Source: a virus. Taken from it: 64,000 nt of DNA. The DNA lies in IMG/VR virus record IMGVR_UViG_3300034190_002401, positions 21,459-85,458 of that record; one strand, 5' to 3'. Of this stretch, positions 4,786-23,220 are shown piece by piece. The position numbers and the translations under genes were made by a program. How positions within the stretch are numbered: the first letter of the stretch is position 1; every line of letters begins with the position of its first letter. Below the pieces are notes generated by a model that was not told the origin of the DNA, searched no databases, and saw nothing but the letters and a program-made list of their open reading frames with translations.

Positions 4786-5253
4786 CTAGTCTCTATCTGG
4801 TTGTTTGTTGTCTGTGGAAACGTCACGGTCTTGGTCTCCGCTTTGATGTGCATTCATCCTCTTTGCAAGTTCTTCGACATTGAAGGAACTGGAAGTTGCA
4901 CCTTTGTTGGCTACGTCCTCCACCTCTAGTAGATGTCCGTTGGTCGAGTACCCTGCGCTCTTAGTCTGCCCACCAGTCTCTGATACGAAATGCATGCCTT
5001 CTGGTTTTGTGGAGAAAGTCTGTTCGTAGTGAGGTTGAGCAGATTTGTTGACTTTACCGTGAACCTTATCGCACTGTGCCTTCTCCTTCGCTGAACACTC
5101 AGAGTATTTCTTGCCAAAGTTCTTCATACAATACTTATCTTTTTCAGCCATGGAAGCCTTCTCTATGGCATCTGCTTTCTTTGCTAAATACTGTGCTTTC
5201 TTCAATAGTGCTTCTGCCTCACTGGAAACTTTTTCATATCTCGGTCTCATCAT
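4786..5253 (-). CDS. Hypothetical head-module protein
   Basis: 155-aa ORF in the operon, coupled to its neighbours; contains ALLKKA and IEKA. Confidence 0.7.
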   Translation of the reverse strand: MMRPRYEKVSSEAEALLKKAQYLAKKADAIEKASMAEKDKYCMKNFGKKYSECSAKEKAQCDKVHGKVNKSAQPHYEQTFSTKPEGMHFVSETGGQTKSAGYSTNGHLLEVEDVANKGATSSSFNVEELAKRMNAHQSGDQDRDVSTDNKQPDRD

Positions 5254-5600
5254 AATACCTCCACGTTCTTGGTGCTGTCTGCCAAATCGTGAATGTCATC
5301 CCAAGACATCTGGTGTACGTCTTCGTTGCTCATCACACCAATATCTACTCTTTTGCCTTTCAGTAGAGTAGCCTCTCCCATATCTAGGTCTGCTCTGAAA
5401 TTATCATTTTCTACATCCTCAGAGAGAGGTGTGTTGACTGATATGAAACCTGCTCTCTTGAGTAGGTTTCCGGGTCGTTGAATCATTTTCTTGAGTTCTA
5501 TGTTCTCTTGTTTCAAACTATCGAGAGAACGGTCCATGGACTCCATCTTGTTGATTAGAGCATTCATTAACCGCTCTGTTCCACTCTCTTCGGTTGTCAC
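5250..5600 (-). CDS. Hypothetical coiled-coil protein (scaffold-like)
   Basis: 116 aa, heptad pattern LDSLKQENIELKKMI, downstream of portal. Confidence 0.7.
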   Translation of the reverse strand: MTTEESGTERLMNALINKMESMDRSLDSLKQENIELKKMIQRPGNLLKRAGFISVNTPLSEDVENDNFRADLDMGEATLLKGKRVDIGVMSNEDVHQMSWDDIHDLADSTKNVEVL

Positions 5601-6001: not shown

Positions 6002-7750
6002 TTATGCACCACGAGGGCGTTTTGCGTCTGAAATGCCACGTTGTGCTCTCTGAACGGGAGTTTGTTGTGGTCCTCTCTGTTGAACGTTGGAAAACGGTGA
6101 ACCTGCTCCTGCTGTGGCTCTTTGTTCAGGCCTTGCTGGTGGTGCGTTTCTGATACCCATACCTTCACCACCGGGATTTGCTATTCCGGGCGGCATACCC
6201 TGTACTCTCTGCATGACTCCGGGCGGCATTGCCCCTCCCGGTGGCATTCCGGGTGGCATTCCGGGTGGCATTCCGGGTGGCATTCCGGGTGGCATCATAG
6301 GCATACCACCACCTCCGGGTGGCATTCCCTGTCCTTCCATCGGGTCTATCTTCTTGTATACGAAGCGAATGTCCCTCTCTCCTTCTTCGAGTAGTTCGGG
6401 TTTGTAGCCGAGCATCATCATTCGTTGTGCTAGGTTGGCTTCCATCTCGTCTCTCCTGAGTCTGGTTATCTCGTCTTCTTCCTCGTTCGGGTAGAGAGTC
6501 AGTTTCCAGTCGTTGACTCCCATCTCCTTGAGCATACGTGGGAAGAGAACATCGGTGTATACCTTCTGACCATACTCCACAGCCCGATTGGTAACGAGAA
6601 TCTGCATACCCTCGTTGTTGAGACCGCCACTCTTACCGTTGTCAATCATGAAGACTGCTGATACCCCATAGAATGCTGCTATCCTGTTTCTCATTTCGTC
6701 ACGGACAGCGATGTACTGCATCTCCTCAAGGGTGTCCATGAACTTAATCCAATTGACACCCCCTCTTCCACTGGAACTCTCGATACCGACCTTGGGAATG
6801 TAGTGAGGGTCTCTCTCCATCTTCTCATCGACTGTCTTCCAGAAGGATTTCATCGACTCTAGATTGTCGGTCGTGACTGATATGATTCCCTTGGGTGCTC
6901 TTCTTTTCTGATAGGATGTGTACATGTAATTGTCCATCGCTGTGAGTGTCATGGCCTGTCTCCACATCGTGTTGACTGGACTTCTTCCGTAGAGTTTCGA
7001 GGGATTGTACTTGCTGACGTGCAGCACCTCGCCCTTGAGGTAGTACTGACTCTTGCCGCTACCAGCCATGTTGATGTAGTGCACGTCTTCCATCTGCCCA
7101 CCGCAGACTTGGCAGTCACCCTCTTGACCGGGATAGGACACCTCTGTCCTGTGCAATGGGCAGACCTTGTACCTGCCACCTCTGACTCCTCTCTTGTCTG
7201 ATACTATACGCATGAATATGGGGTCGCCACGAATGAGTTCCTTGACTCTGAAGAACTGTATCTCTCCATCATCTGGGTCAACGTAGTACTCCTTCACTAT
7301 AATTAGAAATGCGTCGTCAACGACATTGAGGTCTTTCTCTATCTCATACAGAACATGCATGAAATCTTGCTCCATCGAGTTCTGCTCCTTGAGAAGCCAT
7401 CTTGGGTAGACAATCTCGTCTGGGCTTGGTGGTCTTACCGGACTTTGACATGATGTGCACATCTCTATGTCATGTTGGTATTCCTCGCCGCAGGTGTCAC
7501 ACTTGAATCTGAATCTCTTTTCCCAGAAGTACCCTCTCCTGAATATCTCCTGCTGTAGTTTTGACAGGACTGTTCTGAGAATCAGGTTCTCATGTGATAC
7601 AGCGTACAAGGCTGGGATGGTAATACCCTGTGCCAACACTGGTTCTTGTATACCAGTGGTATACAGGGGCATTTGTGGTTGAGGGGTGGTTCGCCTCTTG
7701 AAGGGGTTCAAAGAGTCTAGGAATCTTCTAACAGGACTCTCATCTGCCAT
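6002..7750 (-). CDS. Portal protein (HK97-like) with Cys-rich inserts and a Pro/Gly/Met tail
   Basis: EVLHVSKYNPSKLYGRSP and RIAAFYGVSAVFM are portal-family motifs; lies two genes downstream of TerL. Confidence 0.85.
   Translation of the reverse strand: MADESPVRRFLDSLNPFKRRTTPQPQMPLYTTGIQEPVLAQGITIPALYAVSHENLILRTVLSKLQQEIFRRGYFWEKRFRFKCDTCGEEYQHDIEMCTSCQSPVRPPSPDEIVYPRWLLKEQNSMEQDFMHVLYEIEKDLNVVDDAFLIIVKEYYVDPDDGEIQFFRVKELIRGDPIFMRIVSDKRGVRGGRYKVCPLHRTEVSYPGQEGDCQVCGGQMEDVHYINMAGSGKSQYYLKGEVLHVSKYNPSKLYGRSPVNTMWRQAMTLTAMDNYMYTSYQKRRAPKGIISVTTDNLESMKSFWKTVDEKMERDPHYIPKVGIESSSGRGGVNWIKFMDTLEEMQYIAVRDEMRNRIAAFYGVSAVFMIDNGKSGGLNNEGMQILVTNRAVEYGQKVYTDVLFPRMLKEMGVNDWKLTLYPNEEEDEITRLRRDEMEANLAQRMMMLGYKPELLEEGERDIRFVYKKIDPMEGQGMPPGGGGMPMMPPGMPPGMPPGMPPGMPPGGAMPPGVMQRVQGMPPGIANPGGEGMGIRNAPPARPEQRATAGAGSPFSNVQQRGPQQTPVQRAQRGISDAKRPRGA
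6240..6295. repeat. 12-bp tandem repeat GGTGGCATTCCG, about 4.7 copies (encodes MPPG repeats)
   Basis: Directly visible in the sequence. Confidence 0.95.
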
Positions 7751-8888
7751 CTACATCACCCACCTGTTTAGCAGAGTCGTGTAGAGCGTCGTGCTTGAGT
7801 GTTTCCATCTTTTCAAGGACATATTCGGCTTGTTGCCTCTTGGAGGATAGGTATGGTAGCATGTTCTTGAGGATATTAGACACCTCATTGTCCATGCTGA
7901 AGATGAGGCGGTGTTGAGTTGTATGTTGTTTCGAGATTTTTCTATTGAGTTGCAGAGAGCCACCTTGAATCATCTTGTGCAATTGCTCGCAATGCACCTT
8001 GCCTCTTTTTCCCGGTGATATGAAACCCAGTGAGACCTCACCTCGCTCAGAGATTTTGATGAAACCATCCGACTCTAGGAAGTCAGCGGCATATGACCAA
8101 GGATTCTTGATGATGATTCCATCGTCATGCATCTTGACGAATGTGCCCTTCTTAGGACCGCTGATGATATCGTACTCCTCACCGTACATCGAGAGCAACT
8201 TGGACAACTTGCCTGTGGTCATGCTCTTGTGCAAGACCGATTCATCCAGCATTCTCTCCTGTAGTCTCCTGCTGGAAAGAGCACCTTCTAATTGTAGTAT
8301 ATGTGATGCCTTGATTAGTGTGTCCTGCTCCTTCTGTGTCAGACGTTCAGATTGATGTAGAGTGCTTCTCCACATTTTCTTGGCATCGGTTTTGCTCTGC
8401 ATTGCAGTTGCCCAAGCCTGTGATTCATGTTCTCCCCATACATCTGTGAATTGGTCTAGCATCTTCAATGATGAGTCTGCGCTGTCCCATAGATTACAGG
8501 CTTGTATGAGACCGACTCTTCGACTCTCACCGAATCTCCTGAGGCTCTTGAGGTCTCTATCACTAGCACCAAGTTGCTTTATGGTGCTCTCTTTGCCGTT
8601 TGCCCAAGATATTCCTTTGAGTGTGGTCTTCACCTCTAGCGCCTTGAGTGTCCTAACATCGTCAATCAATAGGTCGATGTCGGCCTTTACGTCCTTGTTG
8701 TTTCTCCTCATCTTCCTAAGTCTCAATACGAAATCGGAAGCACTGCAACCCAGATGAGTCTCGAACCAACCGTTGCCTGTATTGGAGAATGCGTATGAGG
8801 GTGTGAACTTCTCCTCTTCCTTCTGTATGGTTTCAGTCTGGAAGTCTATGTCTTCCTTCAGTATTGCACTATACCAGATTGTCTTCAC
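7740..8888 (-). CDS. Protein with a C-terminal LAGLIDADG-like domain
   Basis: YAADFLESDGFI and MLPYLSSKRQQAEYVL resemble a single-motif LAGLIDADG endonuclease. Confidence 0.6.
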   Translation of the reverse strand: MKTIWYSAILKEDIDFQTETIQKEEEKFTPSYAFSNTGNGWFETHLGCSASDFVLRLRKMRRNNKDVKADIDLLIDDVRTLKALEVKTTLKGISWANGKESTIKQLGASDRDLKSLRRFGESRRVGLIQACNLWDSADSSLKMLDQFTDVWGEHESQAWATAMQSKTDAKKMWRSTLHQSERLTQKEQDTLIKASHILQLEGALSSRRLQERMLDESVLHKSMTTGKLSKLLSMYGEEYDIISGPKKGTFVKMHDDGIIIKNPWSYAADFLESDGFIKISERGEVSLGFISPGKRGKVHCEQLHKMIQGGSLQLNRKISKQHTTQHRLIFSMDNEVSNILKNMLPYLSSKRQQAEYVLEKMETLKHDALHDSAKQVGDVDGR

Positions 8889-8971: not shown

Positions 8972-10450
8972 TCAGGGTATTAACCACCCTCCGCCGGACT
9001 GTTCCTTCCCGCCGAACATGCTGTCGAAGCCCGGCATATAATCATCTAGGAGGACAACCGTTCCTTTGAACTCCTTTGATGCCCAATTAGCGAGTGCCAA
9101 ACTCATCGCTAAGTCGTCATGAACACCCACGCTCTCAAGCCTGCCGTTCTTCTGCATGCCGAATCTGTTTAACTGACTCTCAACCTCATGTGTGTACTTC
9201 CTGCTTCTCTCGTCGCCGTATGGTAGTTTGATGTGCCCCTGCTCGAATGCTAGTAGTAGGGACATGAAGAGTGATTCCTTCTTTGCTCTGGTAGTCATGA
9301 AGACACGGATTGGCATGTCTGCCGCCATCTCCCTCATCTCCTGCTCAAGCATCCTCTGGAAGTTGTTACCCTCAAGTTCTATCAATTCTGGACTGAACTT
9401 GTTGTTGAGCATGACCATCATCCTCTTCTGAGCCATTGAGGACATACCACGCTCGTGTACGACGTGCACTATCTGCTTGAACTCCTCATCTGGAATCTGC
9501 CTCATGACAGTCATCGCTGTGAAGTCAGCGTTCTTGTCGGAGGATATGGCCGGGTCGTGTCCTATGAAGTGCTGACCGAACACACCGTCAGGCTCTCCCT
9601 CCTCGTTGTAGTTGGTCTCAGCCCTGTCTATCAGGGTGAGTTCGTTGTCCCTAGCGGCCTCCAGTATGTCCATCGGGAACATACTCGCCACGTCGTGGAT
9701 AGGCTCGCACAGATACTCACGGCTGAATTGTATGGCTGGCATGGAAAGCCTTCTCTGTTCCAGCGCTTCTATGTTCCAACGCTCAGGCCAGAGTGCTACA
9801 CCTTCGGCGTTTATCGCAGGGAAGGTCTCCACACGGAAGGTCTCCTTCTGCTCCAATTCCGCATACAGGTCGTTGTAACTGAATGGAGTTCCTACCATCA
9901 TGAGTTTGCTGCTGTGGTGGAGAACAGGGAGCAGTACACCGTAGAACCAGTCTGCTGTCCTCTGTAGTTCAGTACCGCTAGTGCCCCACAGGATATCGTC
10001 GCATACAACCACGTCAGGGTGGAAACCACGAGTAGCACCACCGACCGACTTGGCCATGATACGAGAGCCGTTGGAGAACTCGAAGTACGATTTAGCCCAA
10101 GGTCTGCCCTCTGGTATCAGACCACGAAGGCAATCGGTCCTGTCGATGTTGCTTTTTATGAAGCGCATGTGCTCAAGCGTCTGCTCAAGGGAGTGTGAGA
10201 AAATCATGATGTGCTTGCCGGGATTGAATGCAGCAAGCCACAATGCATAGGACATGAAGAACACGGACTTGCCGTGGTCACGAGATGCCTTCACGCAGTA
10301 GTACTGCGATTCCTCAAGCCCGTCCTTCCAAGATTGGTGATGACCGCTGAAGAGGAAACCGAGTATGTCAACGAAGAAGTACTCGAATGACTTCCTGCAC
10401 ATCTCCTTGTCCATCTGGATGATGAAGTCATCCATCGACTCGTCACTCAT
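8972..10450 (-). CDS. terL: Terminase large subunit
   Basis: Walker A ASRDHGKS, Walker B VVVCDD, coupling motif VGTP, nuclease motifs GHDPA and HDDLAMSLALA. Confidence 0.95.
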   Translation of the reverse strand: MSDESMDDFIIQMDKEMCRKSFEYFFVDILGFLFSGHHQSWKDGLEESQYYCVKASRDHGKSVFFMSYALWLAAFNPGKHIMIFSHSLEQTLEHMRFIKSNIDRTDCLRGLIPEGRPWAKSYFEFSNGSRIMAKSVGGATRGFHPDVVVCDDILWGTSGTELQRTADWFYGVLLPVLHHSSKLMMVGTPFSYNDLYAELEQKETFRVETFPAINAEGVALWPERWNIEALEQRRLSMPAIQFSREYLCEPIHDVASMFPMDILEAARDNELTLIDRAETNYNEEGEPDGVFGQHFIGHDPAISSDKNADFTAMTVMRQIPDEEFKQIVHVVHERGMSSMAQKRMMVMLNNKFSPELIELEGNNFQRMLEQEMREMAADMPIRVFMTTRAKKESLFMSLLLAFEQGHIKLPYGDERSRKYTHEVESQLNRFGMQKNGRLESVGVHDDLAMSLALANWASKEFKGTVVLLDDYMPGFDSMFGGKEQSGGGWLIP

Positions 10451-11415
10451 CGCATCACCGACTTCAATAACATAAAAGCCAGTTCCATCGGTTCTCCTGC
10501 GTTTTTCATATTATTCTGATAACCAAAATAACCAGCAGCGCCCTGTGCATCCATCTCAGCAACAAGGTCTTCAGGTGGTACTTGATTCGGGTCTACCGCC
10601 GCTTTTGCAGGAACACCAATTTGAGAAGAGCCGACTTTAGCATTCTGTGTTTGAAGAGGGGTTTGTTCGACCCCCGGTAGCATCTGACCCATCTGTTCCA
10701 TGGTCATGGTAGGCACTCCGGCAGAGCCGGTTGGTGTCTGGTAAACTTGGTCAGCATATGACTGTCCTGCTCTAACATCAGGATTAGGAGCGACATTTTG
10801 CAGCATTGATGGGTCTACGTTGCCTAGTCCTGCTGCTCCAAGACCGGTAGGTGCTGCTGGTGCTGCTGGGTTGAACATATTTCTCTGTATACCCTTTTGA
10901 CCTGATACCACTTGATTACCTCCGGGCATGGGTGTGCCGTATATTCCCAGTTGGAAGTTTTCTGGTATGTTGAAGTCCGGCGAGGCGGCAGGTTGTGCTG
11001 CTCTTTCTCTACGTACTGCTACTTGAGTATCATAATGCTGCGGAGGGGCAACATTACCACCGGGTGGCATTTGGGCGTTGAACGCTTCCATTCCCATTCG
11101 ATTTGCCCTTTCTAACTTCTTTTTCTCTTTGTGCTGTTCTCTAGCCTCAACACCAGAATCTATGGTTTTACCTGCTCCGAGATAAGTACCTACACCACGA
11201 CCAGCAGCCGTTTGTGCTGCGCTGAATGCATCCTGCTGGTTCTCGCTTGCATCTGCTAGGGATGTCAGTGCTGAAAGTCCACCGAGAGCACCACCTACAA
11301 TTTTTCCGGGTTTGGTCTTAACTCTGAATAGGTCTTGGAGTGCTTGTCCCCCGTAGGCGTTTGCTAGAGATGTCATAGCACTAGGGGACTTGACCAGAAC
11401 CTTGCCTTTCTTCAT
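10447..11415 (-). CDS. Low-complexity Gly/Ala/Pro/Gln-rich putative virion or ejection protein
   Basis: Start re-called at ATG 11415 (overlaps the upstream TGA). C-terminal PMELAFMLLKS motif. Confidence 0.7.
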   Translation of the reverse strand: MKKGKVLVKSPSAMTSLANAYGGQALQDLFRVKTKPGKIVGGALGGLSALTSLADASENQQDAFSAAQTAAGRGVGTYLGAGKTIDSGVEAREQHKEKKKLERANRMGMEAFNAQMPPGGNVAPPQHYDTQVAVRRERAAQPAASPDFNIPENFQLGIYGTPMPGGNQVVSGQKGIQRNMFNPAAPAAPTGLGAAGLGNVDPSMLQNVAPNPDVRAGQSYADQVYQTPTGSAGVPTMTMEQMGQMLPGVEQTPLQTQNAKVGSSQIGVPAKAAVDPNQVPPEDLVAEMDAQGAAGYFGYQNNMKNAGEPMELAFMLLKSVMR

Positions 11416-13655
11416 CACTCTCCCCCCAGTGTGACCTTGACCACCTTGACTACTGATGGTTTGATTTTGTATGCCTTGGCAATCCTGTCCCAATCGCCCT
11501 TGCTGTTGGATATGGTTCTGACATCCTGCTTGGTGATACCGAGTTTCATGGCGAGGAATGACACGTCATCCTCCTTGTTGGCACTCAACTTCTCCTTGGG
11601 CATCTGCTTGAGCACAGCCACGTCCCTTTTAGCCTCAAGCATCTGGACTCTTTCCATTGCTTTCACCAGTCTGTCTTCGATGGATAGTGTATCGAAACTG
11701 GTTGCCACTGGGAAGGAGTCAGTCAACTTTGTTTGATAAGGGCTTTGTGAAGCACCAAAAGTTTTGACTGCTTCCATGAGTTTTTGCCTTTGCTGCTCGT
11801 CAAGAGAAAGAGGGTCTACTGGTTGCTTACCAGTCTGTTGGAAATACGATGGAAGACCGAACATTGGCTCTTTTTGCATTCTTCTGGATATAGCCTCTCC
11901 TACTTTCTTCCGGTATTCGTCATCCATACTAGCGAAATCAGGTGGTGCTGCTTCGGGTTGTGCTTCTGGTTTCGCCATCGGCTCTGAGTCGTCTGCCGCT
12001 AGCGGAGAGTCGTATGCCTCTGTCATTGCGCTCGGCACGAAGTAGTTCTGCATGTGCTCAGGCAGTGGTCTGTTGACATCGAGGTGACCATCTAGATACT
12101 TGGGGACTAGACCGGGAGCGGCCTCGCCTGACACAGGTGCGAACTCACGCACCGTGCCACCGTGACCCAATGTGACGAGAGAACCTAAGAGGGAGAACAT
12201 GTCTTTCTGACTCTGAGAGGTCTCATGAGCAGGCTCTTCTTGGGCGAAGTTAGTGAGAGCGTCTAAACTTCCTATGACACCTGAGAGTGCGAGGAACTCG
12301 GCTGCTGGCATATGAACCGCCTTGCCCTTCTTCTCGTGAGTTCCCAGAGTGTTACCGGCAGTGACCCTCTCCATTGCGTTGTCGAACATCTGCTGTCCTT
12401 GCCCCTTCAAATCGGGGTGTCCTATCAGGGTATCTTTGAGAGTATTCACCAACTTATTGACACGTGATGTCTTCTGAGCGGGGTTGCCGAGCATGAATTG
12501 AAGAGCATCAGGACTCATGGCCATCTGGTCTATCAAATTATCAAGTTTGGGAAACTTCTTTCCAAATCTAGTCTCCTCGTATATCTCCCTGACTGTAGGT
12601 CCTTCAACAGGACCTGATGGGTCTTGTCTCGTGAATATGGGAACGTCTAGCATCTCGGTGTTGTTCTTGTTGAGATTGGAGACAATCGCTGGTAGCAATT
12701 TTAACATGTATTCACGATAGTTTTCTTTCTTTATATTAGTGCCACCCGGATTCTTTACTCCCTCTCCATATTCGGGAAGAGGATTGAAGATGTCAAGAGG
12801 CATGTGTTGAATCATCTCCCAGTTGTGAACGTTGTCGTGCACCACATCACCTACGGATGAGTGTCCCAGCATCTCCCTGAACTCAGGTGGTAGTGTCATG
12901 TCATCTGCTAGGTTCTCACCGACCACGCCTCTCAGTCTCCTAGTGTTGGGGGATATGTGCCTGCCTGAGATGTAGCCATGCGTGATTCCCTCATCGAAGT
13001 TTGATTTGTAGTTGAAGTCCTCCTTGAGAGTATTATGTAGATAGGGTGCGAATGGTATCCTGTACGACTCAGGGTGCTGTGCTAGACCCTGCTTGGAGTG
13101 CTTGAGACGGGCATCGCTGCTCATGTTGAGGTTGATGAAAGTGCCACCCTTGCCACGAGCGGAGAACTGGTTCGCCTGCTCTGTAGTTTTCGGACTGGAG
13201 AAATCACCCTTGGTCAGCCTCCTCCATTCTGGTGACATGATGTCCTCAGGCAGGCTCTGGTTCTTCGCATCCTGATGGTCTTCGTTGTAGTCGCCTATCG
13301 CATCGCTGATTATCTCCCTAGCGAGTTTACCATTGCCGACTATCTTGGACACCTTCGCTATCAGTGCGTCGATTCCGTGTCGGTGCTCGTTGCCGTGTAT
13401 GTCGGTGTAGACGTGCTCGCCATCAGCCCCCATTCCCCAATCTCCCTCTGCTGCCCTGTCACCGTATCTGGCGTTCTTGGGGAGGTCGTATCCCATGTCA
13501 TTGGTGGGGTTGAGGTCGTGGTACTGGTCTGGGTGAGTGTCTCCTAAGAACACCAACTCACCAGTGAGAGGGTCAACGGTGTACGTTCCCTCTCCCTTTC
13601 TGAGCATGCCACTTGCGAGTAAGGCATGTGTGACGGATTTGAAAAGCAGGCTCAT
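11415..13655 (-). CDS. Large putative virion protein with an HTH-like C-terminus
   Basis: 746 aa, coupled to both neighbours; LAMKLGITKQDVRTI is HTH-like. Confidence 0.75.
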   Translation of the reverse strand: MSLLFKSVTHALLASGMLRKGEGTYTVDPLTGELVFLGDTHPDQYHDLNPTNDMGYDLPKNARYGDRAAEGDWGMGADGEHVYTDIHGNEHRHGIDALIAKVSKIVGNGKLAREIISDAIGDYNEDHQDAKNQSLPEDIMSPEWRRLTKGDFSSPKTTEQANQFSARGKGGTFINLNMSSDARLKHSKQGLAQHPESYRIPFAPYLHNTLKEDFNYKSNFDEGITHGYISGRHISPNTRRLRGVVGENLADDMTLPPEFREMLGHSSVGDVVHDNVHNWEMIQHMPLDIFNPLPEYGEGVKNPGGTNIKKENYREYMLKLLPAIVSNLNKNNTEMLDVPIFTRQDPSGPVEGPTVREIYEETRFGKKFPKLDNLIDQMAMSPDALQFMLGNPAQKTSRVNKLVNTLKDTLIGHPDLKGQGQQMFDNAMERVTAGNTLGTHEKKGKAVHMPAAEFLALSGVIGSLDALTNFAQEEPAHETSQSQKDMFSLLGSLVTLGHGGTVREFAPVSGEAAPGLVPKYLDGHLDVNRPLPEHMQNYFVPSAMTEAYDSPLAADDSEPMAKPEAQPEAAPPDFASMDDEYRKKVGEAISRRMQKEPMFGLPSYFQQTGKQPVDPLSLDEQQRQKLMEAVKTFGASQSPYQTKLTDSFPVATSFDTLSIEDRLVKAMERVQMLEAKRDVAVLKQMPKEKLSANKEDDVSFLAMKLGITKQDVRTISNSKGDWDRIAKAYKIKPSVVKVVKVTLGGE

Positions 13656-14971
13656 GCTGTTCGACCCGCCCTGCTGGTGTAGATACCAACAGGGTCAGCA
13701 CCATGCATCTCCTCTTCCTCTATGTTCTCTGTTGGTCCATTGGGTTTGCTGGTCTGGTCTCTTGAGTTAGAGGGGTGTTTTGGTAGATTAGAACCACCAC
13801 CTGAAGTGTCCTTGTCTCCCTTCCCTTTCTTCTTGTTCTCCTTCCTGTCAAGTAGCCTTGCCACCTTTTGTGCGAGTATCCTCAGTTCCTGCTTGTCTCC
13901 CCATGTCGTCTTTCGACTCTTGCCTATCATCGACATTGATTGATTAGACATTCTAGGGGAGAAGGATTGTGTAGAGCCACCCATGTTGAGATGCGGCATA
14001 CCACTGATTCTAGGTGGTACTATTGGAGGAGCACGGTGTGGTTTCAGTCTAGGTCTTGGGACTTTCGGCCTCATCTCACCCGGTAGTTTGGATTGGATTG
14101 TACCTGCACCGGTCTCACCTGCCTTGTACGACCTAGGGTTCTTCGGATTGGGTGTTGACTCTGTGACTCTGACGTTTCCTGTTCTTTTCCTACCACCTTG
14201 AGCACCCATGTAACTCCTGTATGCACCGGGGTCTTTGCTCATCGGTTGTTTGGTTGCGATGGCTCTGTGTTCCATCTCGACGGAGAGTGGCGCTTGCATC
14301 ATTCCTCTTTTCTTGCCTCTCGTGACACCTCTTCTCTTGGCCTTGTACGAACGCTCGGTGGCGTTGATACCACCACTCATCCCTCCCGGTCCTGTCTTGA
14401 ACTGCCCTGTGCTGGGCTTGAACTTCTTTCTCCTCTCCTGCACCGCTTCCTTGTCGTCTGCTCTACCTGACTCACTGAGTGGTCTGAGCATAGCGGTATC
14501 CGCATTCTCACCGAATGACTTGAGCAATGAGGACCAAGCATTCTCCATTGGTTCACTTGTGAATACCGGGTGGCCGTATGCCGCTCCCGGTCCTTTTGCC
14601 TGATTTGCTAAACTGGTCATGAACCCACCATTGCCGGGCGGTCCAGTGAATGCGTTGATTTCTCCCTCGTTCGTCAATCTACCTGACAGGCTTCTGGGGT
14701 CTTCTTCGGTATCGTCTCTCGTTTCTGATGGGTCGTCCTTGAATTGTTGGAGCATAGCAGGTGTGACCTTGACGTGTTTTCTGTTCTTGAGTTTCTTCTC
14801 CTGCATGTCCTGCTCCTTCTGCTTCTTCTCCTTCTCAGCATCTAGATACTCAGGGTCACCGGGGTTGTAGCGACTCTCGTATCCATCGTTGTACCTGAAC
14901 ATCGTGGATGATTCGCTTCTTGAGTTGTATAGTCTGGTATCGCTACCACGACCCATCATTCCCTCGGTCAT
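13652..14971 (-). CDS. Basic, largely disordered putative internal head protein
   Basis: 439 aa, rich in K/R/G/P; internal PMENAWSSLLKS motif. Confidence 0.75.
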   Translation of the reverse strand: MTEGMMGRGSDTRLYNSRSESSTMFRYNDGYESRYNPGDPEYLDAEKEKKQKEQDMQEKKLKNRKHVKVTPAMLQQFKDDPSETRDDTEEDPRSLSGRLTNEGEINAFTGPPGNGGFMTSLANQAKGPGAAYGHPVFTSEPMENAWSSLLKSFGENADTAMLRPLSESGRADDKEAVQERRKKFKPSTGQFKTGPGGMSGGINATERSYKAKRRGVTRGKKRGMMQAPLSVEMEHRAIATKQPMSKDPGAYRSYMGAQGGRKRTGNVRVTESTPNPKNPRSYKAGETGAGTIQSKLPGEMRPKVPRPRLKPHRAPPIVPPRISGMPHLNMGGSTQSFSPRMSNQSMSMIGKSRKTTWGDKQELRILAQKVARLLDRKENKKKGKGDKDTSGGGSNLPKHPSNSRDQTSKPNGPTENIEEEEMHGADPVGIYTSRAGRTA

Positions 14972-15396: not shown

Positions 15397-16074
15397 TCAC
15401 TCGCCTTGCTGTTCCAATAACTGCTCTTTAATCCTCTTCCAACTATCAGGGCTTTCCTTTGCTAATTCGACTTTTAGTATGTTAAACGTCTGGTTGATTT
15501 GAGTACCATCACTGTCTGCCCCCCAACTGTCATTTAACTTCACTAGGTCTTTGATGCTCTCCCTCACCTCTTTGTGTAGTTTCACTGCATCACCGACGAA
15601 ACCATCTTCATGCACACTACCGTAATCTAACAACTCATTGAACTTGTCGTTGAGTTTCTCAACATTAGTACGGAGAACATTGACTTCTTGACCTAGAGTG
15701 ATAGCGACCTCGAATGCTGCTGCCTTCTTGACGAGAGGCTGGAAGTGGTGTTTCATGTGGTGATAGACGGAGTTCTCAGAGCATCCAATGACTTCTGCTA
15801 TATCCTCACTAGGCAGTATACCCTCGAAGTATCCTGTCTCGAACTCCCCTCTCCTGTCATGTGTGCAAACCACACAGGAATGGTTGGAATCCATGTGATA
15901 CTCACCCATGTGATTCTTGAAGTGACGGTCTGCTGTATTGGCCCTCCAATTCATGTCTTTATCCAGTTGCTTACAACTGATTTCACCGTTCAAGAGAGAC
16001 TGTTCTAGTTGCTCTCTATCATCAGATTGGCAAAAGGCGCAGGACCTCTTGACCACTCGCTCTCGCTCGGTCAC
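15397..16074 (-). CDS. Tandem Zn-finger/HTH protein, candidate terminase small subunit
   Basis: Two CxxC...HxxxH repeats with an HTH (EDIAEVIGCSENSVYHH), followed by a coiled coil. Confidence 0.55.
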   Translation of the reverse strand: MTERERVVKRSCAFCQSDDREQLEQSLLNGEISCKQLDKDMNWRANTADRHFKNHMGEYHMDSNHSCVVCTHDRRGEFETGYFEGILPSEDIAEVIGCSENSVYHHMKHHFQPLVKKAAAFEVAITLGQEVNVLRTNVEKLNDKFNELLDYGSVHEDGFVGDAVKLHKEVRESIKDLVKLNDSWGADSDGTQINQTFNILKVELAKESPDSWKRIKEQLLEQQGE

Positions 16075-19951: not shown

Positions 19952-20980
19952 CTAATTCAGTGTCTGGTAAAGATTAGAACCCGGATAATTAGTATAATAA
20001 TCAGGTTTCTTCGGAGTAATAGATGACGATTGATATTGTTCGGTAATATCACCACGAGCATCTCTGAAAGATGGTTTTTGCTGACCAGCAGTATACATGA
20101 CTGCCTCTTGGCCATACTTCGCTGCCAACTCCAGAAGTTTGGCCTGTTGCTCTGGGTTTACTCTAGGTATGGTGAATGAGGGTTCTGTGTCTCCCCCCTC
20201 TGTCCATTTAGAACCCCCCTCGGCTGATATTATGTCTGGTAGTTTAAGCCCCGCTAGTTCTGCAAGCATTTGATTACTCAACCCTTCTGCTCTTTTCCTA
20301 CCCACGGTTGTTGCTCCCGGTTTAGTGCCTATGGTCATGGTGGGGTACTTGTGAGGTCGATGTGCACCCTCTATTTTAGAGGGGGAAAACTCAGAAAGAG
20401 TAGTCTGCTTTGATTTTATCACTCTCAAAGTCCCTTTGTCTTTGAAGTGTCTAGCCCTGTTCGCGTGCTCCCCCTCTAACGTGAGCCTCCCACCTTGTGT
20501 GTGACTGACATCCTTACGATTGTGAGACCCGTAGATGCCTCGTCGTCTTCTTTCCCTATTGAGTTCTTCACGGTACTTCACACGTTCAGGGCTGGACTCG
20601 TATTTTGTGTCATATTCCTTCTTATGACGCTGGGCTTCTGGTGATAACTCCCTTGCTTTGAGGACTGCAACCCCCTTAACAATCGTCGGTTTCCCACCAA
20701 TCCCCTGTTTCTTGGCTCTTTTGCGTTTTGTGGCTGACCTTTTCTGTCCACTTGACATCGAACCAGAAGTCTTTGGAGTTTTGTCTGAAACTTTCACCGA
20801 TGGCCTGCACTTCGGGTATCCTTTTCCAGACAATTTTGCTTTCCCCCTCCCGCATGGTGGGTGTTTCCCATCCTTGTCCTTTCTCGATACGTCTACCCAC
20901 TTCTCCTTGAACCATCGGTTCAGGTTCTTTACCACTAACGTATTGTGGCAGGTGCAGCGGGAGTCTGAATCGGTACTCAT
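19952..20980 (-). CDS. Multi-domain basic protein (DUF5872-like + HNH-like + C-terminal domain)
   Basis: LNRWFKEKWVD...PCGR...YPKCRP; KDVSH...HANRARH; modules separated by hydrophobic-x-K motifs. Confidence 0.7.
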   Translation of the reverse strand: MSTDSDSRCTCHNTLVVKNLNRWFKEKWVDVSRKDKDGKHPPCGRGKAKLSGKGYPKCRPSVKVSDKTPKTSGSMSSGQKRSATKRKRAKKQGIGGKPTIVKGVAVLKARELSPEAQRHKKEYDTKYESSPERVKYREELNRERRRRGIYGSHNRKDVSHTQGGRLTLEGEHANRARHFKDKGTLRVIKSKQTTLSEFSPSKIEGAHRPHKYPTMTIGTKPGATTVGRKRAEGLSNQMLAELAGLKLPDIISAEGGSKWTEGGDTEPSFTIPRVNPEQQAKLLELAAKYGQEAVMYTAGQQKPSFRDARGDITEQYQSSSITPKKPDYYTNYPGSNLYQTLN

Positions 20981-21168
20981 TTCTTCTTACCTTTCCCTCG
21001 AAACTTTCCCCTGCAATATTGTACAGCCCATCCATTAGCATAGGCAGACGGATAGACCTTGAACTTTCTTTTTGCAGCGGCTTTACCTGCTGGACAGAGT
21101 TTCTTTTCAAGTGTGTCCCATGCACCATTCATACCGACGCAATGACCACAATCACAAGAACCTATCAT
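20977..21168 (-). CDS. Small basic protein (KFKVYPSAYANGW family, DUF5872-like)
   Basis: Motif common in marine phage proteins; carries AWDTLEK. Confidence 0.7.
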   Translation of the reverse strand: MIGSCDCGHCVGMNGAWDTLEKKLCPAGKAAAKRKFKVYPSAYANGWAVQYCRGKFRGKGKKK

Positions 21169-21353
21169 ATCACAAACACCATTTTAGTAATTTTATCAGC
21201 GGCTTTTCTCTGAGCATACAGTAAACTGTAGCAGGGACATCGAGGTGGGGTCATTGAGCATTTCATCACTCCCTTTTCCATGCATTTGCATGGATTCTTC
21301 TTATTTCCACCACAACAACAACTATCTCTTTTCAATGCCATCAGCAGTTCCAC
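21165..21353 (-). CDS. Small Cys-rich protein
   Basis: CCCGG...CKC...C...CPC; coupled to neighbours. Confidence 0.6.
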   Translation of the reverse strand: MELLMALKRDSCCCGGNKKNPCKCMEKGVMKCSMTPPRCPCYSLLYAQRKAADKITKMVFVI

Positions 21354-22120
21354 CTCTTCAGTGCTGCACCCTTTGGTGTGAGTTTGCCGTCCTTGCTGGT
21401 AGGACCTTTACTCCCACCCATGCGAGCGCAGAAGGACTTTCTTCTCTTCGCCTTTTTACTACCCGGTTTGAGTTTGGATGGTTTTGTCGTGACCGGGGGT
21501 TTGAGGTTCGCACCGGTTTCTCTCTTGAACTTGGCACGCCCCTTTGCGTTCAGACCGCCCTTCTTGTGATGCCTCTTCGGGTTGTATCCGTGAAACGGCT
21601 TGGATTTCTTCTTGGCCTTCTCGAAATAGTCCTCAATCAGAGTGCCGAATGCCTGTGTGGAAGGAGAACAGCAGTCACAAGTCGCTGTGACTTGCACGTA
21701 AGCGTCTGATTTCATCGTCATGGGGGCTAGATTGGCCCTAGGAATGCCTCCACTCCTCACATTACTTTCAGTACCACTGAAAATACCACCGCTAGGCTCT
21801 GGTTGTGCGACTGGGTTAGCCAGTCCTCCACCCCTCACGCCTACTACACCCACATTGCTCTGAGGCAGACCGAACTTTTTGGCCCTTTCTAATGCGAACT
21901 GGTACGCTAGTTCTGGATTGTCGGTTGTGTAGGACACCCTGTCCTCATTCCTGAGGCTGGGTGGGACGTAGTGTTTCGAGCGTTTTTTCGGGTCTCCACC
22001 CATGATTCCTTGGTCGAGAACGCCCTGCATGTCGATTGTTCCGTGGTACTCACTGACTGGACCAAGGCTGCTGGGAAAATCAGAGTGGAACTCACCGAGT
22101 TCTGTCTGTCTGCTTACCAT
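21341..22120 (-). CDS. ADP-ribosyltransferase-like domain fused to a DUF6321-like basic domain
   Basis: YHGT...VLDQGI...SYTTDNPELAYQFA suggests the ART fold; GGLNAKGRAK...RRKSFCARM...ALKRWNC is DUF6321-like. Confidence 0.6.
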   Translation of the reverse strand: MVSRQTELGEFHSDFPSSLGPVSEYHGTIDMQGVLDQGIMGGDPKKRSKHYVPPSLRNEDRVSYTTDNPELAYQFALERAKKFGLPQSNVGVVGVRGGGLANPVAQPEPSGGIFSGTESNVRSGGIPRANLAPMTMKSDAYVQVTATCDCCSPSTQAFGTLIEDYFEKAKKKSKPFHGYNPKRHHKKGGLNAKGRAKFKRETGANLKPPVTTKPSKLKPGSKKAKRRKSFCARMGGSKGPTSKDGKLTPKGAALKRWNC

Positions 22121-22132
22121 GAATAGCCCTCC

Positions 22133-22678
22133 TTAGAGTCTCTGTGGAGGACTCCTTCGCTCGATTGGCGAGTTTTGTCGATTCACCTGTGATAGAATCT
22201 CATTTATCGCATTCCGGTAGTAGTCTGTGGCTTCCGGTGGTGCTTCTCTACGTGGAGGACTTGGGTCTGGCTTCTTGTCCATGGGGTTGGGCATCTCGAA
22301 CAGGTCTGGCCTTTCTCTCTTGAGTTGCTCTTGGTCTATGTGTAGACCTGCATTAAGTTTTTCTTCCAAGTCTTCTCTTTCTGGAGAATGGTCGAGGTAG
22401 TCATATTTAGACTCAAAAAAGTCCCCTCTATGCATCTTTTCTTCATCCGGTATAAGTGGTAGACCATATTCGTCAAAGTTCTCGTTTTCTCTGCTCAGAG
22501 GCCTGCCCATTGCGTCTATGAGAGGCTCGCCCGGCTCGAACTTGAGGAACTCCCATGCTTTCTTCATGGCTTTCTCGTCTGGTTTCGAGGTTTCAGTAGG
22601 CTTCTTGGGCATCTTAGGGCCGACAGCGATAACCAGTGTCATCCCTGCTTTCTTACCCTTGTCCTTCATACATATCAC
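22133..22678 (-). CDS. Hypothetical AWxxLK-motif protein
   Basis: MKKAWEFLK followed by an acidic, Pro-rich region. Confidence 0.7.
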   Translation of the reverse strand: MICMKDKGKKAGMTLVIAVGPKMPKKPTETSKPDEKAMKKAWEFLKFEPGEPLIDAMGRPLSRENENFDEYGLPLIPDEEKMHRGDFFESKYDYLDHSPEREDLEEKLNAGLHIDQEQLKRERPDLFEMPNPMDKKPDPSPPRREAPPEATDYYRNAINEILSQVNRQNSPIERRSPPQRL

Positions 22679-23220
22679 TGGTTATTTCTCTGCTCTGGTA
22701 TCTGAGGGGCGGAAACTCCTATTTTTGATGGTGCGCTGTCCCTACCGGTCATACCGGTGTTCATGGCATTCATGTCCCTCATGTGCTCTACAAAGTACTC
22801 TTGAGCGATATCAGAACTCAATTGGTGCTCATCATCATCCATTCCCTGCTCTACCGCAGACAAACCGGGGATGATGCCTAGTTTGTTCATGTAGTGATGT
22901 AGTATCTGCTGCTCCTTCTCGTTCCTAGGCTTGTGGTCATCGAAGATAGTGCCACCATGTGCGTCGAAGTCAGCCTGAGCCTGCTCGAACTCATCCAATT
23001 CAGGACCATCCGAGTAGTCCTCGTACTCATCTCTGTACGATTTCCTGAGTGTGTTGTAGTCGTATTGTAGTTTGAGGGCGGCCTTTCTCATGACATAGGC
23101 CTTCTTCATCTCGCCGCCGCAGCCCATCTTCTGCATGCAGTGTGCTTTTTTCATGCCGCATCCGGGGCACTTCTCATTGTCTGCTTTCAATAGAGTCCAT
23201 GCTGTGTCAAATGCGCTCAT
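22675..23220 (-). CDS. Hypothetical AWxxLK-motif protein
   Basis: Begins MSAFDTAWTLLKA. Confidence 0.75.
   Translation of the reverse strand: MSAFDTAWTLLKADNEKCPGCGMKKAHCMQKMGCGGEMKKAYVMRKAALKLQYDYNTLRKSYRDEYEDYSDGPELDEFEQAQADFDAHGGTIFDDHKPRNEKEQQILHHYMNKLGIIPGLSAVEQGMDDDEHQLSSDIAQEYFVEHMRDMNAMNTGMTGRDSAPSKIGVSAPQIPEQRNNQ

Follow-up and report, generated by a model that had tools for sequence, protein, structure and literature searches.

Here we describe two late genes, the open reading frames ORF1 (342 aa, 19952-20980) and ORF2 (259 aa, 21341-22120), both on the minus strand, in a stretch of 64,000 nucleotides of viral DNA, referred to as the window, that represents bases 21459-85458 of the IMG/VR record IMGVR_UViG_3300034190_002401 (linear, 85,458 bp, about 72% complete). 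On the plus strand of the window lie genes for a family B DNA polymerase and for a chaperonin of the thermosome type, and the minus strand encodes the terminase, the portal, and a giant protein; close by, outside the window, are the genes of an SU10/HK97-type capsid protein and of a Peptidase_S78 protease that has a charged scaffold-like tail fused to it. This gene set fits the description of magroviruses given in passages of PMC5434244. A megablast search with 12 kb against known phages found no DNA similarity. The two genes encode polyvalent late proteins of an archaeal tailed virus that resembles the magroviruses, and each protein is a chain of independently shuffled modules. The hosts of magroviruses, the Poseidoniales, rank with the most numerous archaea in the surface ocean, and we know of no account of how these viruses take over their hosts.

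ORF1 comprises a short leader, the C-terminal half of DUF5872, the hexapeptide GVAVLK, a possibly HNH-like module, and a domain with the predicted fold of S-adenosylmethionine (SAM) lyase, and ORF2 comprises a predicted ADP-ribosyltransferase-fold domain, a Cys-rich leader helix, and DUF6321. The borders were derived from BLASTP alignments, with 195 high-scoring segment pairs (HSPs) from 120 homologues for ORF1 and 127 HSPs for ORF2, and the motifs discussed below were not used to define either set; counts of leaders, joints, and gene orders cover 80 related loci. Both architectures recur in close relatives, one 97% identical over the full length and present on 7 contigs (P0001), the other 94% identical and present on 8 contigs (P0121), so the fusions are not assembly artefacts.

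The leader of ORF1 (residues 1-18, 20927..20980; all modules are on the minus strand) carries a C-x-C-H motif and ends in LVVK18. Module A (residues 19-102, 20675..20926), which ends in GGKPTIVK102, matches the Pfam family DUF5872 (PF19197) over residues 19-91 with 39.4 bits against a gathering cut-off of 27.5, the match being confined to profile positions 55-114, and phrog_23735 covers residues 19-104. This module is very basic (26 Lys and Arg vs 5 Asp and Glu, isoelectric point (pI) 10.9) and has a predicted local distance difference test score (pLDDT) below 50 in the AlphaFold2 model. The N-terminal half of DUF5872 is encoded behind a tag-like leader by a 63-aa gene (20977..21168, minus strand; phrog_27331, E 5.6e-18) with a weak Pfam DUF5872 match at profile positions 8-44. 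The family is split here into adjacent genes with an ATGA stop/start overlap, and its halves are adjacent in 72 of the 80 loci as well as in two marine phages of bacteria. We considered and rejected a programmed frameshift between the 63-aa gene and ORF1 and take the two as separate genes, because the overlap is a plain ATGA with no slippery run and the halves belong to separate PHROG families.

The six-residue spacer GVAVLK (residues 103-108, 20657..20674) stands between two Lys joints and is followed by module B (residues 109-189, 20414..20656), which ends in RVIK189 and is covered by phrog_6437 over residues 114-182. Module B is predicted to consist of two helices and a beta-beta-alpha unit, with an invariant D-x-S-H-T...E...N-R-A-R-H-F pattern in a 19-sequence alignment (invariant residues D157, S159, H160, E169, N174, and H178). 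The AlphaFold2 model has strands at 157-161 and 165-169 and a helix at 173-178, all at low confidence (pLDDT about 46-62 over 157-178), and the Atlas points to HNH_3 with a score of 0.89, a lead that holds for 40% of one cluster. Pfam returned no match for this module, and the 19-sequence profile had none among PDB chains up to E 10; module B is possibly HNH-like.

Module C (residues 190-342, 19955..20413) is predicted from its model to fold like the SAM lyase (SAMase) of phage T3 over residues 205-342. VIA-align superposes 129 of 152 residues on 7ock_L (Z 11.7, root-mean-square deviation (rmsd) 3.0), with the next row at Z 5.8, and Foldseek finds 8bb1_E (prob 0.99, template modelling (TM) score 0.67), the pLDDT of the model being 70-91. 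The Pfam SAM lyase family PF23780 gives 21.6 bits (E 2.2e-4), under its gathering cut-off of 28, and a phmmer comparison with PDB chains yielded chance-level rows only and no alignment to a solved SAM lyase.

In ORF2, module X (residues 1-137, 21710..22120), which ends in PMTMK137, has a predicted ADP-ribosyltransferase fold, modelled with pLDDT 84-91 over residues 20-135. Its best VIA-align match is the KptA structure 9ld3_A (Z 9.3, rmsd 2.7, 83 aligned), and about 42 of 50 rows, judged by their titles, are ADP-ribosyltransferases, Tpt1/KptA, DarT, or PARPs; Foldseek finds 8tfi (E 3.4e-3, prob 1.00), and its top rows are Tpt1/KptA (prob 0.96-1.00). Among 40 sequences H26 is invariant, Y64 is conserved in at least 90%, and position 108 is acidic (E here, D in the consensus); these are candidates for the H-Y-[ED] residues of the superfamily. 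No Pfam ADP-ribosyltransferase family matches the query or 39 relatives, and sequence comparison with PDB chains gave chance-level rows only. Relatives of this domain (P0242-P0281) include fusions to HD_4, GNAT, a poly(A)-polymerase/CCA-type nucleotidyltransferase, and DUF5872, each in 1-2 of the 40 scanned. Module X is followed by an acidic internal leader (residues 138-168, 21617..21709), with C-x-C-C-S-P and then a helix ending in YFEK168, and by the DUF6321 module (residues 169-259, 21344..21616), which matches PF19846 over residues 185-257 with 65.2 bits against a gathering cut-off of 28.5 and is covered by phrog_10346 over 167-259. The latter module is extremely basic (30 Lys and Arg vs 2 Asp and Glu, pI 11.5).

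A preliminary description of these genes had spoken of joined mini-domains resembling DUF5872, HNH, and DUF6321. The DUF5872 and DUF6321 assignments are borne out by Pfam scores above the cut-offs; the term mini-domains misses two full enzyme folds, the predicted SAM lyase fold of ORF1 and the predicted ADP-ribosyltransferase fold of ORF2, neither of which had been named.

Six hydrophobic-x-Lys motifs had been quoted as linkers between the modules, and all six lie exactly where they had been placed: LVVK18|N19, TIVK102|G103, AVLK108|A109, and RVIK189|S190 in ORF1, and MTMK137|S138 and YFEK168|A169 in ORF2. Chance expectation was estimated from 5000 composition-preserving shuffles. A strict form of the motif, [LIVM][LIVM]K, is present four times in ORF1 where 0.86 would be expected (P = 0.008), and these occurrences are exactly the four named sites among 41 Lys; four Lys drawn at random from the 41 would all fall inside the four breakpoint zones with a chance of about 5e-5. 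ORF2 has no strict [LIVM][LIVM]K anywhere, and Lys makes up 12% of each protein.

The module borders coincide with these motifs across homologues, by HSPs, AlphaFold models, and profile matches, as the preliminary description had supposed. Among the ORF1 HSPs, 30 stop exactly at residue 102, 64 begin at 105-114, and 105 stop at 186-189. For ORF2, 6 HSPs stop at 134-139 and 8 begin at 136-137, while 56 begin at 147-148, which is the start of the Cys-rich leader and not K168; K168 is the final residue of the model helix 156-168 and aligns with the h-h-K end of a tag found in homologues (see below). Distant relatives of the first ORF2 domain stop at query residue 132-135, often at their own protein end. 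Many ORF1 homologues have 100-400 unrelated residues inserted between modules A and B, and some have the order B-A; the joint in the latter reads ...GTLKK|NLNRW, and module A therefore begins at N19. In the AlphaFold models, ORF1 is predicted to be disordered over residues 1-112, followed by the two helices and beta-beta-alpha unit of module B at 114-178 and a confident alpha/beta domain at 197-342, and ORF2 has a confident domain at 20-135, ending at 134-137, followed by a low-confidence stretch with the single helix 156-168.

This relationship extends to the wider family. Among 856 breakpoint clusters in 240 homologues, 15.8% fall exactly on [LIVM][LIVM]K compared with 0.9% of random positions (about 17-fold), and 29% lie within 5 residues of it compared with 8.8%; the enrichment on any Lys is much weaker (25% vs 13%, exact). 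Since the homologues are related to one another, these 856 breakpoints cannot be counted as independent. The anatomy itself is sound: both proteins are made of independently mobile modules in series, and the named lysines mark the borders.

The joints themselves are conserved in relatives. Every one of the 80 loci has Lys immediately before module A, and 79 of them have Val, Ile, or Leu as the third residue before the junction (P3, the Lys being P1); P2 varies (V 30, E 20, I 9, R 8, and others), and the leader that these positions terminate ranges from MTVEK to Cys-rich 18-mers, with Cys in 34 of the 80. Module A ends in GGKPT[IVM]VK in 79 loci and is followed, in these 79 cases, mostly by S (21), A (21), or M (18), with G 5, E 5, Q 4, T 3, and R 2. 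All 7 B-C fusions listed carry h-h-K at the joint. At the position of GVAVLK, stand-alone module A proteins have the tails MVAVK*, MVAVI*, and MVRVI*, and other relatives have a full 12-residue tag, such as SGEPMDIAFQLLK in P0009. The short joints of ORF1 correspond to the tails and tags of its relatives. Stand-alone A and B proteins (L094, L099, L103, L113, L127, L129, L145, and others) end in MVAVI*, MVRVI*, MVAVK*, or ...RVV*, and stand-alone bacterial-phage versions of the modules end in ...KIA* or ...RVA*; such short hydrophobic tails may be a shared C-terminal strand.

The tag is a portable 12-residue helical peptide, ...P-M-D-I-A-[FW]-x-L-L-K, whose last residues are matched by the short joints. 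It is found at every joint of multi-module relatives, in up to 3 copies per protein, as well as at N-termini and at one C-terminus; it directly precedes domain X in P0245, P0249, P0255, and P0256, and a pattern search of our own found at least one copy in 31 of 59 relatives of this domain. Where one locus holds more than one copy (39 pairs in 14 of 160 loci), the copies agree at 69% of residues, and 121 of 233 codons for identical tag residues differ (52%), which argues for selection on the peptide and not on the DNA. A DNA-level recombination joint as the cause of tag conservation was rejected on this codon divergence. In ORF2, the C-x-C-C-S-P leader with its YFEK helix aligns with ...AEIAWAITK|A and ...AEISFEFLK|A of homologues, which also carry ...CCSPAEIAWAITK|A at this position, and the leader is a degenerate copy of the portable tag. 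Full tags exist in the same genome, GEPMELAFMLLK|SVMR at the C-terminus of a 348-aa protein encoded just upstream of the terminase (10447-11493, minus strand) and SEPMENAWSSLLK|S inside a 439-aa protein (13652-14971, minus strand).

N-terminal tag-like leaders are also present on genes 22675-23220, 7740-8888, 11415-13655, and 15397-16074. A second portable element, of about 30 residues, is Lys-rich and continues with G-M-x-L-V-I-[AS]-V-G and then KKP...D-P-D. It forms the N-terminus of the 181-aa gene 22133-22678 (minus strand) and occurs in P0149-P0164 and others; the homologue set contains 32 pattern matches, 31 of them N-terminal and one between modules (P0131). Between ORF2 and the 63-aa gene lies a 62-aa Cys-rich ORF (10 Cys; 21165-21353, minus strand) that starts with MELLMALK and ends with MVFVI, which recalls the leaders and tails of the modules around it; no family matched it.

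The cargo had been proposed to be released by a viral maturation protease specific for Lys, and a gene of the appropriate family is present. It encodes a protein of 467 aa just outside the window (G000:C1:19288-20691, minus strand), adjoins the capsid gene, and contains Peptidase_S78 at residues 21-176 (41.5-44 bits vs a cut-off of 21). Over 149 aa the protein shares 27% identity with HK97 gp4 (E 8e-6), and its family differs from that of T4 gp21. The family archetype cuts after Lys: the HK97 capsid protein is cleaved at K103/S104 (passages of PMC10275583), and the site T-F-N-K|S is a hydrophobic-x-K followed by a small residue. Candidate sites of the same kind occur near the N-terminus of the present capsid protein (...GSELLK34|ADAPML), at the beginning of the protease (...GITLIK16|GG), and at the end of its catalytic domain, before the charged scaffold-like tail (...FRILK168|EDKKK). 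ELLK is present in the N-termini of 77 of 80 capsid-protein relatives, and in the remaining 3 the 50-residue segment stops short of the site. The literature passages considered here contained no mature capsid-protein cleavage sites of archaeal tailed viruses, and no peptidase family matches ORF1 or ORF2 at E up to 0.1-1. A 116-aa protein encoded after the portal (5250-5600, minus strand) shares the C-terminal MSWD[DE][IV]H[DN]LA[DN]ST with the protease-scaffold protein, which may be a common capsid- or portal-binding tail.

A link of the modules to the head is seen in gene order and in one virion. As had been suggested, the modules also occur alone: PHROG profiles of 50, 81, 86, and 99 residues match them, and they are separate small genes in the phages P-SCSP2 and 023Pt_psg01. 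In a Prochlorococcus podovirus and a marine phage, the basic modules are small separate genes adjoining portal, scaffold, or capsid genes, and they are common to pelagiphages and cyanophages. Among the module A proteins of the 80 loci, A stands alone in 18, is joined to B in 13, to DUF6321 in 17, and to other sequences in 29, with 3 preceded forms. The DUF5872 N-terminal half, module A, and DUF6321 share the strand of the head genes. The large terminase gene (TerL) is seen in 37 of the loci and the portal in 33; the trio lies mostly between these two, and after the portal in 3 loci. The arrangement of the present window is found in 23 of the 80. In the cyanophage S-CREM2, ORF137 (L166, 108049-109521) lies between the small and large terminase genes and is annotated as hypothetical; we found that its C-terminus is DUF6321 (E 3.5e-10). 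The virion proteome of this phage, in Table 3 of PMC10665884, lists ORF137 with 4 unique peptides (4.1% coverage) and also includes a SAM hydrolase, and the passages of that paper considered here do not comment on the DUF6321 domain. This single experimental observation concerns a relative of the module, not a relative of the virus, and its support for packaging here is indirect.

From the anatomy, the conserved joints, the folds, the protease gene, and the linkage to the head, we infer packaging, cleavage, ejection, and enzyme activity as follows. ORF1 and ORF2 would be co-assembled as precursors into the procapsid, where the HK97-type serine protease would cut behind the joint lysines and free the modules. 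The basic modules would remain with the packed DNA, and the enzymes would exit with the DNA on infection and act on the host: SAM depletion would oppose SAM-dependent defences, and ADP-ribosylation would modify host targets. That the joint lysines are cut by the head protease of the virus, releasing the modules, is in our judgment nearly an even call. It is a reasonable reading of the joints because of the family precedent, the conservation of P3 and P1 before variable leaders, the conservation of the tag at the peptide level, and the T4 parallel. The general form of the proposal, a magrovirus system of tagging, loading, and cutting around an HK97-type, Lys-specific head protease, in which host-directed enzymes (an ADP-ribosyltransferase, a SAM lyase, and many others) and protamine-like DNA-binding mini-proteins are carried on freely recombining polyproteins, loaded into the capsid, cut at each aliphatic-x-Lys joint, and injected with the genome, is put forward tentatively, as possible but short of probable.

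Several observations weigh against cleavage at the joints. The hydrophobic-x-K linker of the preliminary description does not stand in its loose form, since [LIVMFYWA]-x-K occurs at or below chance (9 vs 11.0 expected in ORF1, 4 vs 8.8 in ORF2), and it survives as the strict form, which is enriched in ORF1 with every occurrence at a named site. Even [LIVM][LIVM]K is only mildly enriched in the late genes (58 vs 41.9 expected), is near its expected rate in the early genes (43 vs 40.1), is found in the interior of the capsid protein (residue 147) and of the portal, and is common in proteins that are surely not cut; because of its presence in early genes, in the capsid protein interior, and in the portal, the tripeptide alone cannot define a cut site. 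About 70% of homology breakpoints are more than 5 residues away from it. TIVK closes a conserved GGKPT-x-VK block, which a homologue from a bacterial phage has as well, and the conservation of Lys over Arg is uninformative on protease specificity, because K18 and K102 are Lys in 100% and 99% of 181 segments and at least 6 other Lys of module A are equally fixed. The fourth site of ORF1, K189, is conserved only in the subset with module C after module B. Loading of ORF1 and ORF2 is less certain than that of tagged relatives, because ORF1 lacks a full tag and the copy in ORF2 is degenerate. All 80 capsid-protein relatives are at least 79% identical, which permits no divergence test of the candidate site. 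T7-like phages, which are not known to have a head protease, encode these modules too, each as a single gene, so the modules need no cleavage as such.

The strongest alternative to cleavage by the head protease holds that ORF1 and ORF2 are uncut multi-domain fusions, with the Lys joints as relics of former gene ends and the tag serving for docking or targeting without proteolysis. It accounts for much of the same data, and we regard it as a serious possibility, though on the doubtful side. Fusion and fission of the same modules are rampant across the 80 loci; the tails MVAVK* and MVRVI* of stand-alone A match GVAVLK of ORF1, stand-alone B ends in ...GTLRVV* or RVI*, one residue short of K189, and the Met found after K102 in 18 of 79 cases is as expected for a retained start codon. 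Polyvalent proteins such as the N4 virion RNA polymerase, moreover, are packaged unprocessed (passages of PMC5512222). Such relics leave unexplained why P1 Lys and P3 aliphatic residues persist in 80 and 79 of 80 loci beside a drifting leader, and why the 12-residue peptide is kept at the protein level despite the codon divergence; the same motif class in the N-terminal region of the capsid protein and at the end of the protease domain also speaks against them.

It is unlikely that another agent cuts the joints or uses the tag, be it a host protease or a non-capsid targeting route (membrane, secretion). The motif is tied to the S78 enzyme by family precedent alone, and ORF1 and ORF2 lie about 20 kb from the protease gene, adjoining a GTPase and a block of membrane-protein genes. 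Against such an agent, related loci have the modules between the TerL and portal genes, the virions of a cultured cyanophage contain a DUF6321 protein, and the leaders are amphipathic or acidic, unlike signal peptides. The match of motifs and borders is very improbable as a composition by-product of Lys-rich proteins with hydrophobic strand ends, a reading that is favoured by the chance-level loose motif, the missing strict motif of ORF2, and the Lys content and that is opposed by the strict-motif and breakpoint-zone statistics of ORF1, the 17-fold coincidence in homologues, and the invariant joint Lys ahead of highly variable leaders.

If the proposal of protease-released, injected modules is true, archaeal viruses would have their first described effector-delivery system, convergent with the capsid targeting sequence (CTS) system of T4, and the range of protease-released head cargo would grow from T4-like phages to include the HK97 protease family and archaeal viruses. 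The ADP-ribosyltransferase and SAM lyase would then be concrete effectors that can be assayed, and a simple peptide code would mark virus-carried proteins, so that an injected arsenal could be listed from metagenomes alone. Because the small basic modules are common to pelagiphages and cyanophages, their function would matter for the most abundant marine viruses. The passages of the magrovirus literature considered are silent on ADP-ribosylation, on SAM enzymes, and on cleavage or internal proteins, and no description of such a system was found in the passages available on magroviruses and prohead proteases or on DUF5872 (PF19197) and DUF6321 (PF19846).

Comparison with known systems suggests that ORF1 and ORF2 are akin to T4-style head cargo and polyvalent proteins. 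The HK97 protease is not known to cut anything but the scaffold domain of the capsid protein and itself, and we know of no cargo proteins for it. The likeness to HK97 lies in the homologous protease and in cleavage after Lys with a hydrophobic P3 (F-N-K|S), as described in the passages cited above. The T3 SAM lyase (gp0.3; 7OCK, 8BB1), whose fold module C is predicted to share, with a sequence match below the Pfam cut-off, is an early gene product that is not known to be packaged; the SAM hydrolase of S-CREM2 is found in virions (Table 3 of PMC10665884).

Prohead proteases of the giant phages phiKZ and SPN3US recognize an acid-ended motif. In these phages, a single prohead protease processes many proteins of the head interior at a short consensus (passages of PMC5694885, PMC7411985, and PMC10052503), and some of the cut proteins are ejected into the host, as proposed here. 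These phages differ from the present case in having a T4-like protease, and most of its substrates are large single proteins instead of portable small modules in a chain.

Polyvalent proteins, as described in passages of PMC5512222, combine at least two unrelated conflict-type domains, including ADP-ribosyltransferases, in portal-terminase phages, and are predicted to travel with the DNA; release of their domains by proteolysis has been proposed there. ORF1, with the C-terminal half of DUF5872, module B, and the predicted SAM lyase fold, and ORF2, with the predicted ADP-ribosyltransferase fold and DUF6321, resemble them, and the terminase and portal are encoded in the window. In those passages polyvalent proteins usually carry a peptidase of their own (zincin-like MPTase), whereas ORF1 and ORF2 would rely on a separate head protease; the modules here are also far smaller, and a repeated peptide tag marks the joints.

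A close parallel is T4, which packs the ADP-ribosyltransferase Alt and the internal proteins IPI-III by means of a targeting peptide that is cleaved by the gp21 prohead protease (passages of PMC9026906). The system proposed here from sequence differs from the T4 CTS in its HK97 S78 protease, its P1 Lys in place of Glu, and its archaeal host, and in the chaining of several modules with a joint at every border. As far as the cited passages describe the T4 system, the two share portable peptides that end in a protease motif (aliphatic-x-acid in T4, aliphatic-x-Lys here) and precede unrelated, fast-changing proteins; both are encoded by late genes, and the T4 cargo likewise includes an ADP-ribosyltransferase together with anti-restriction functions.

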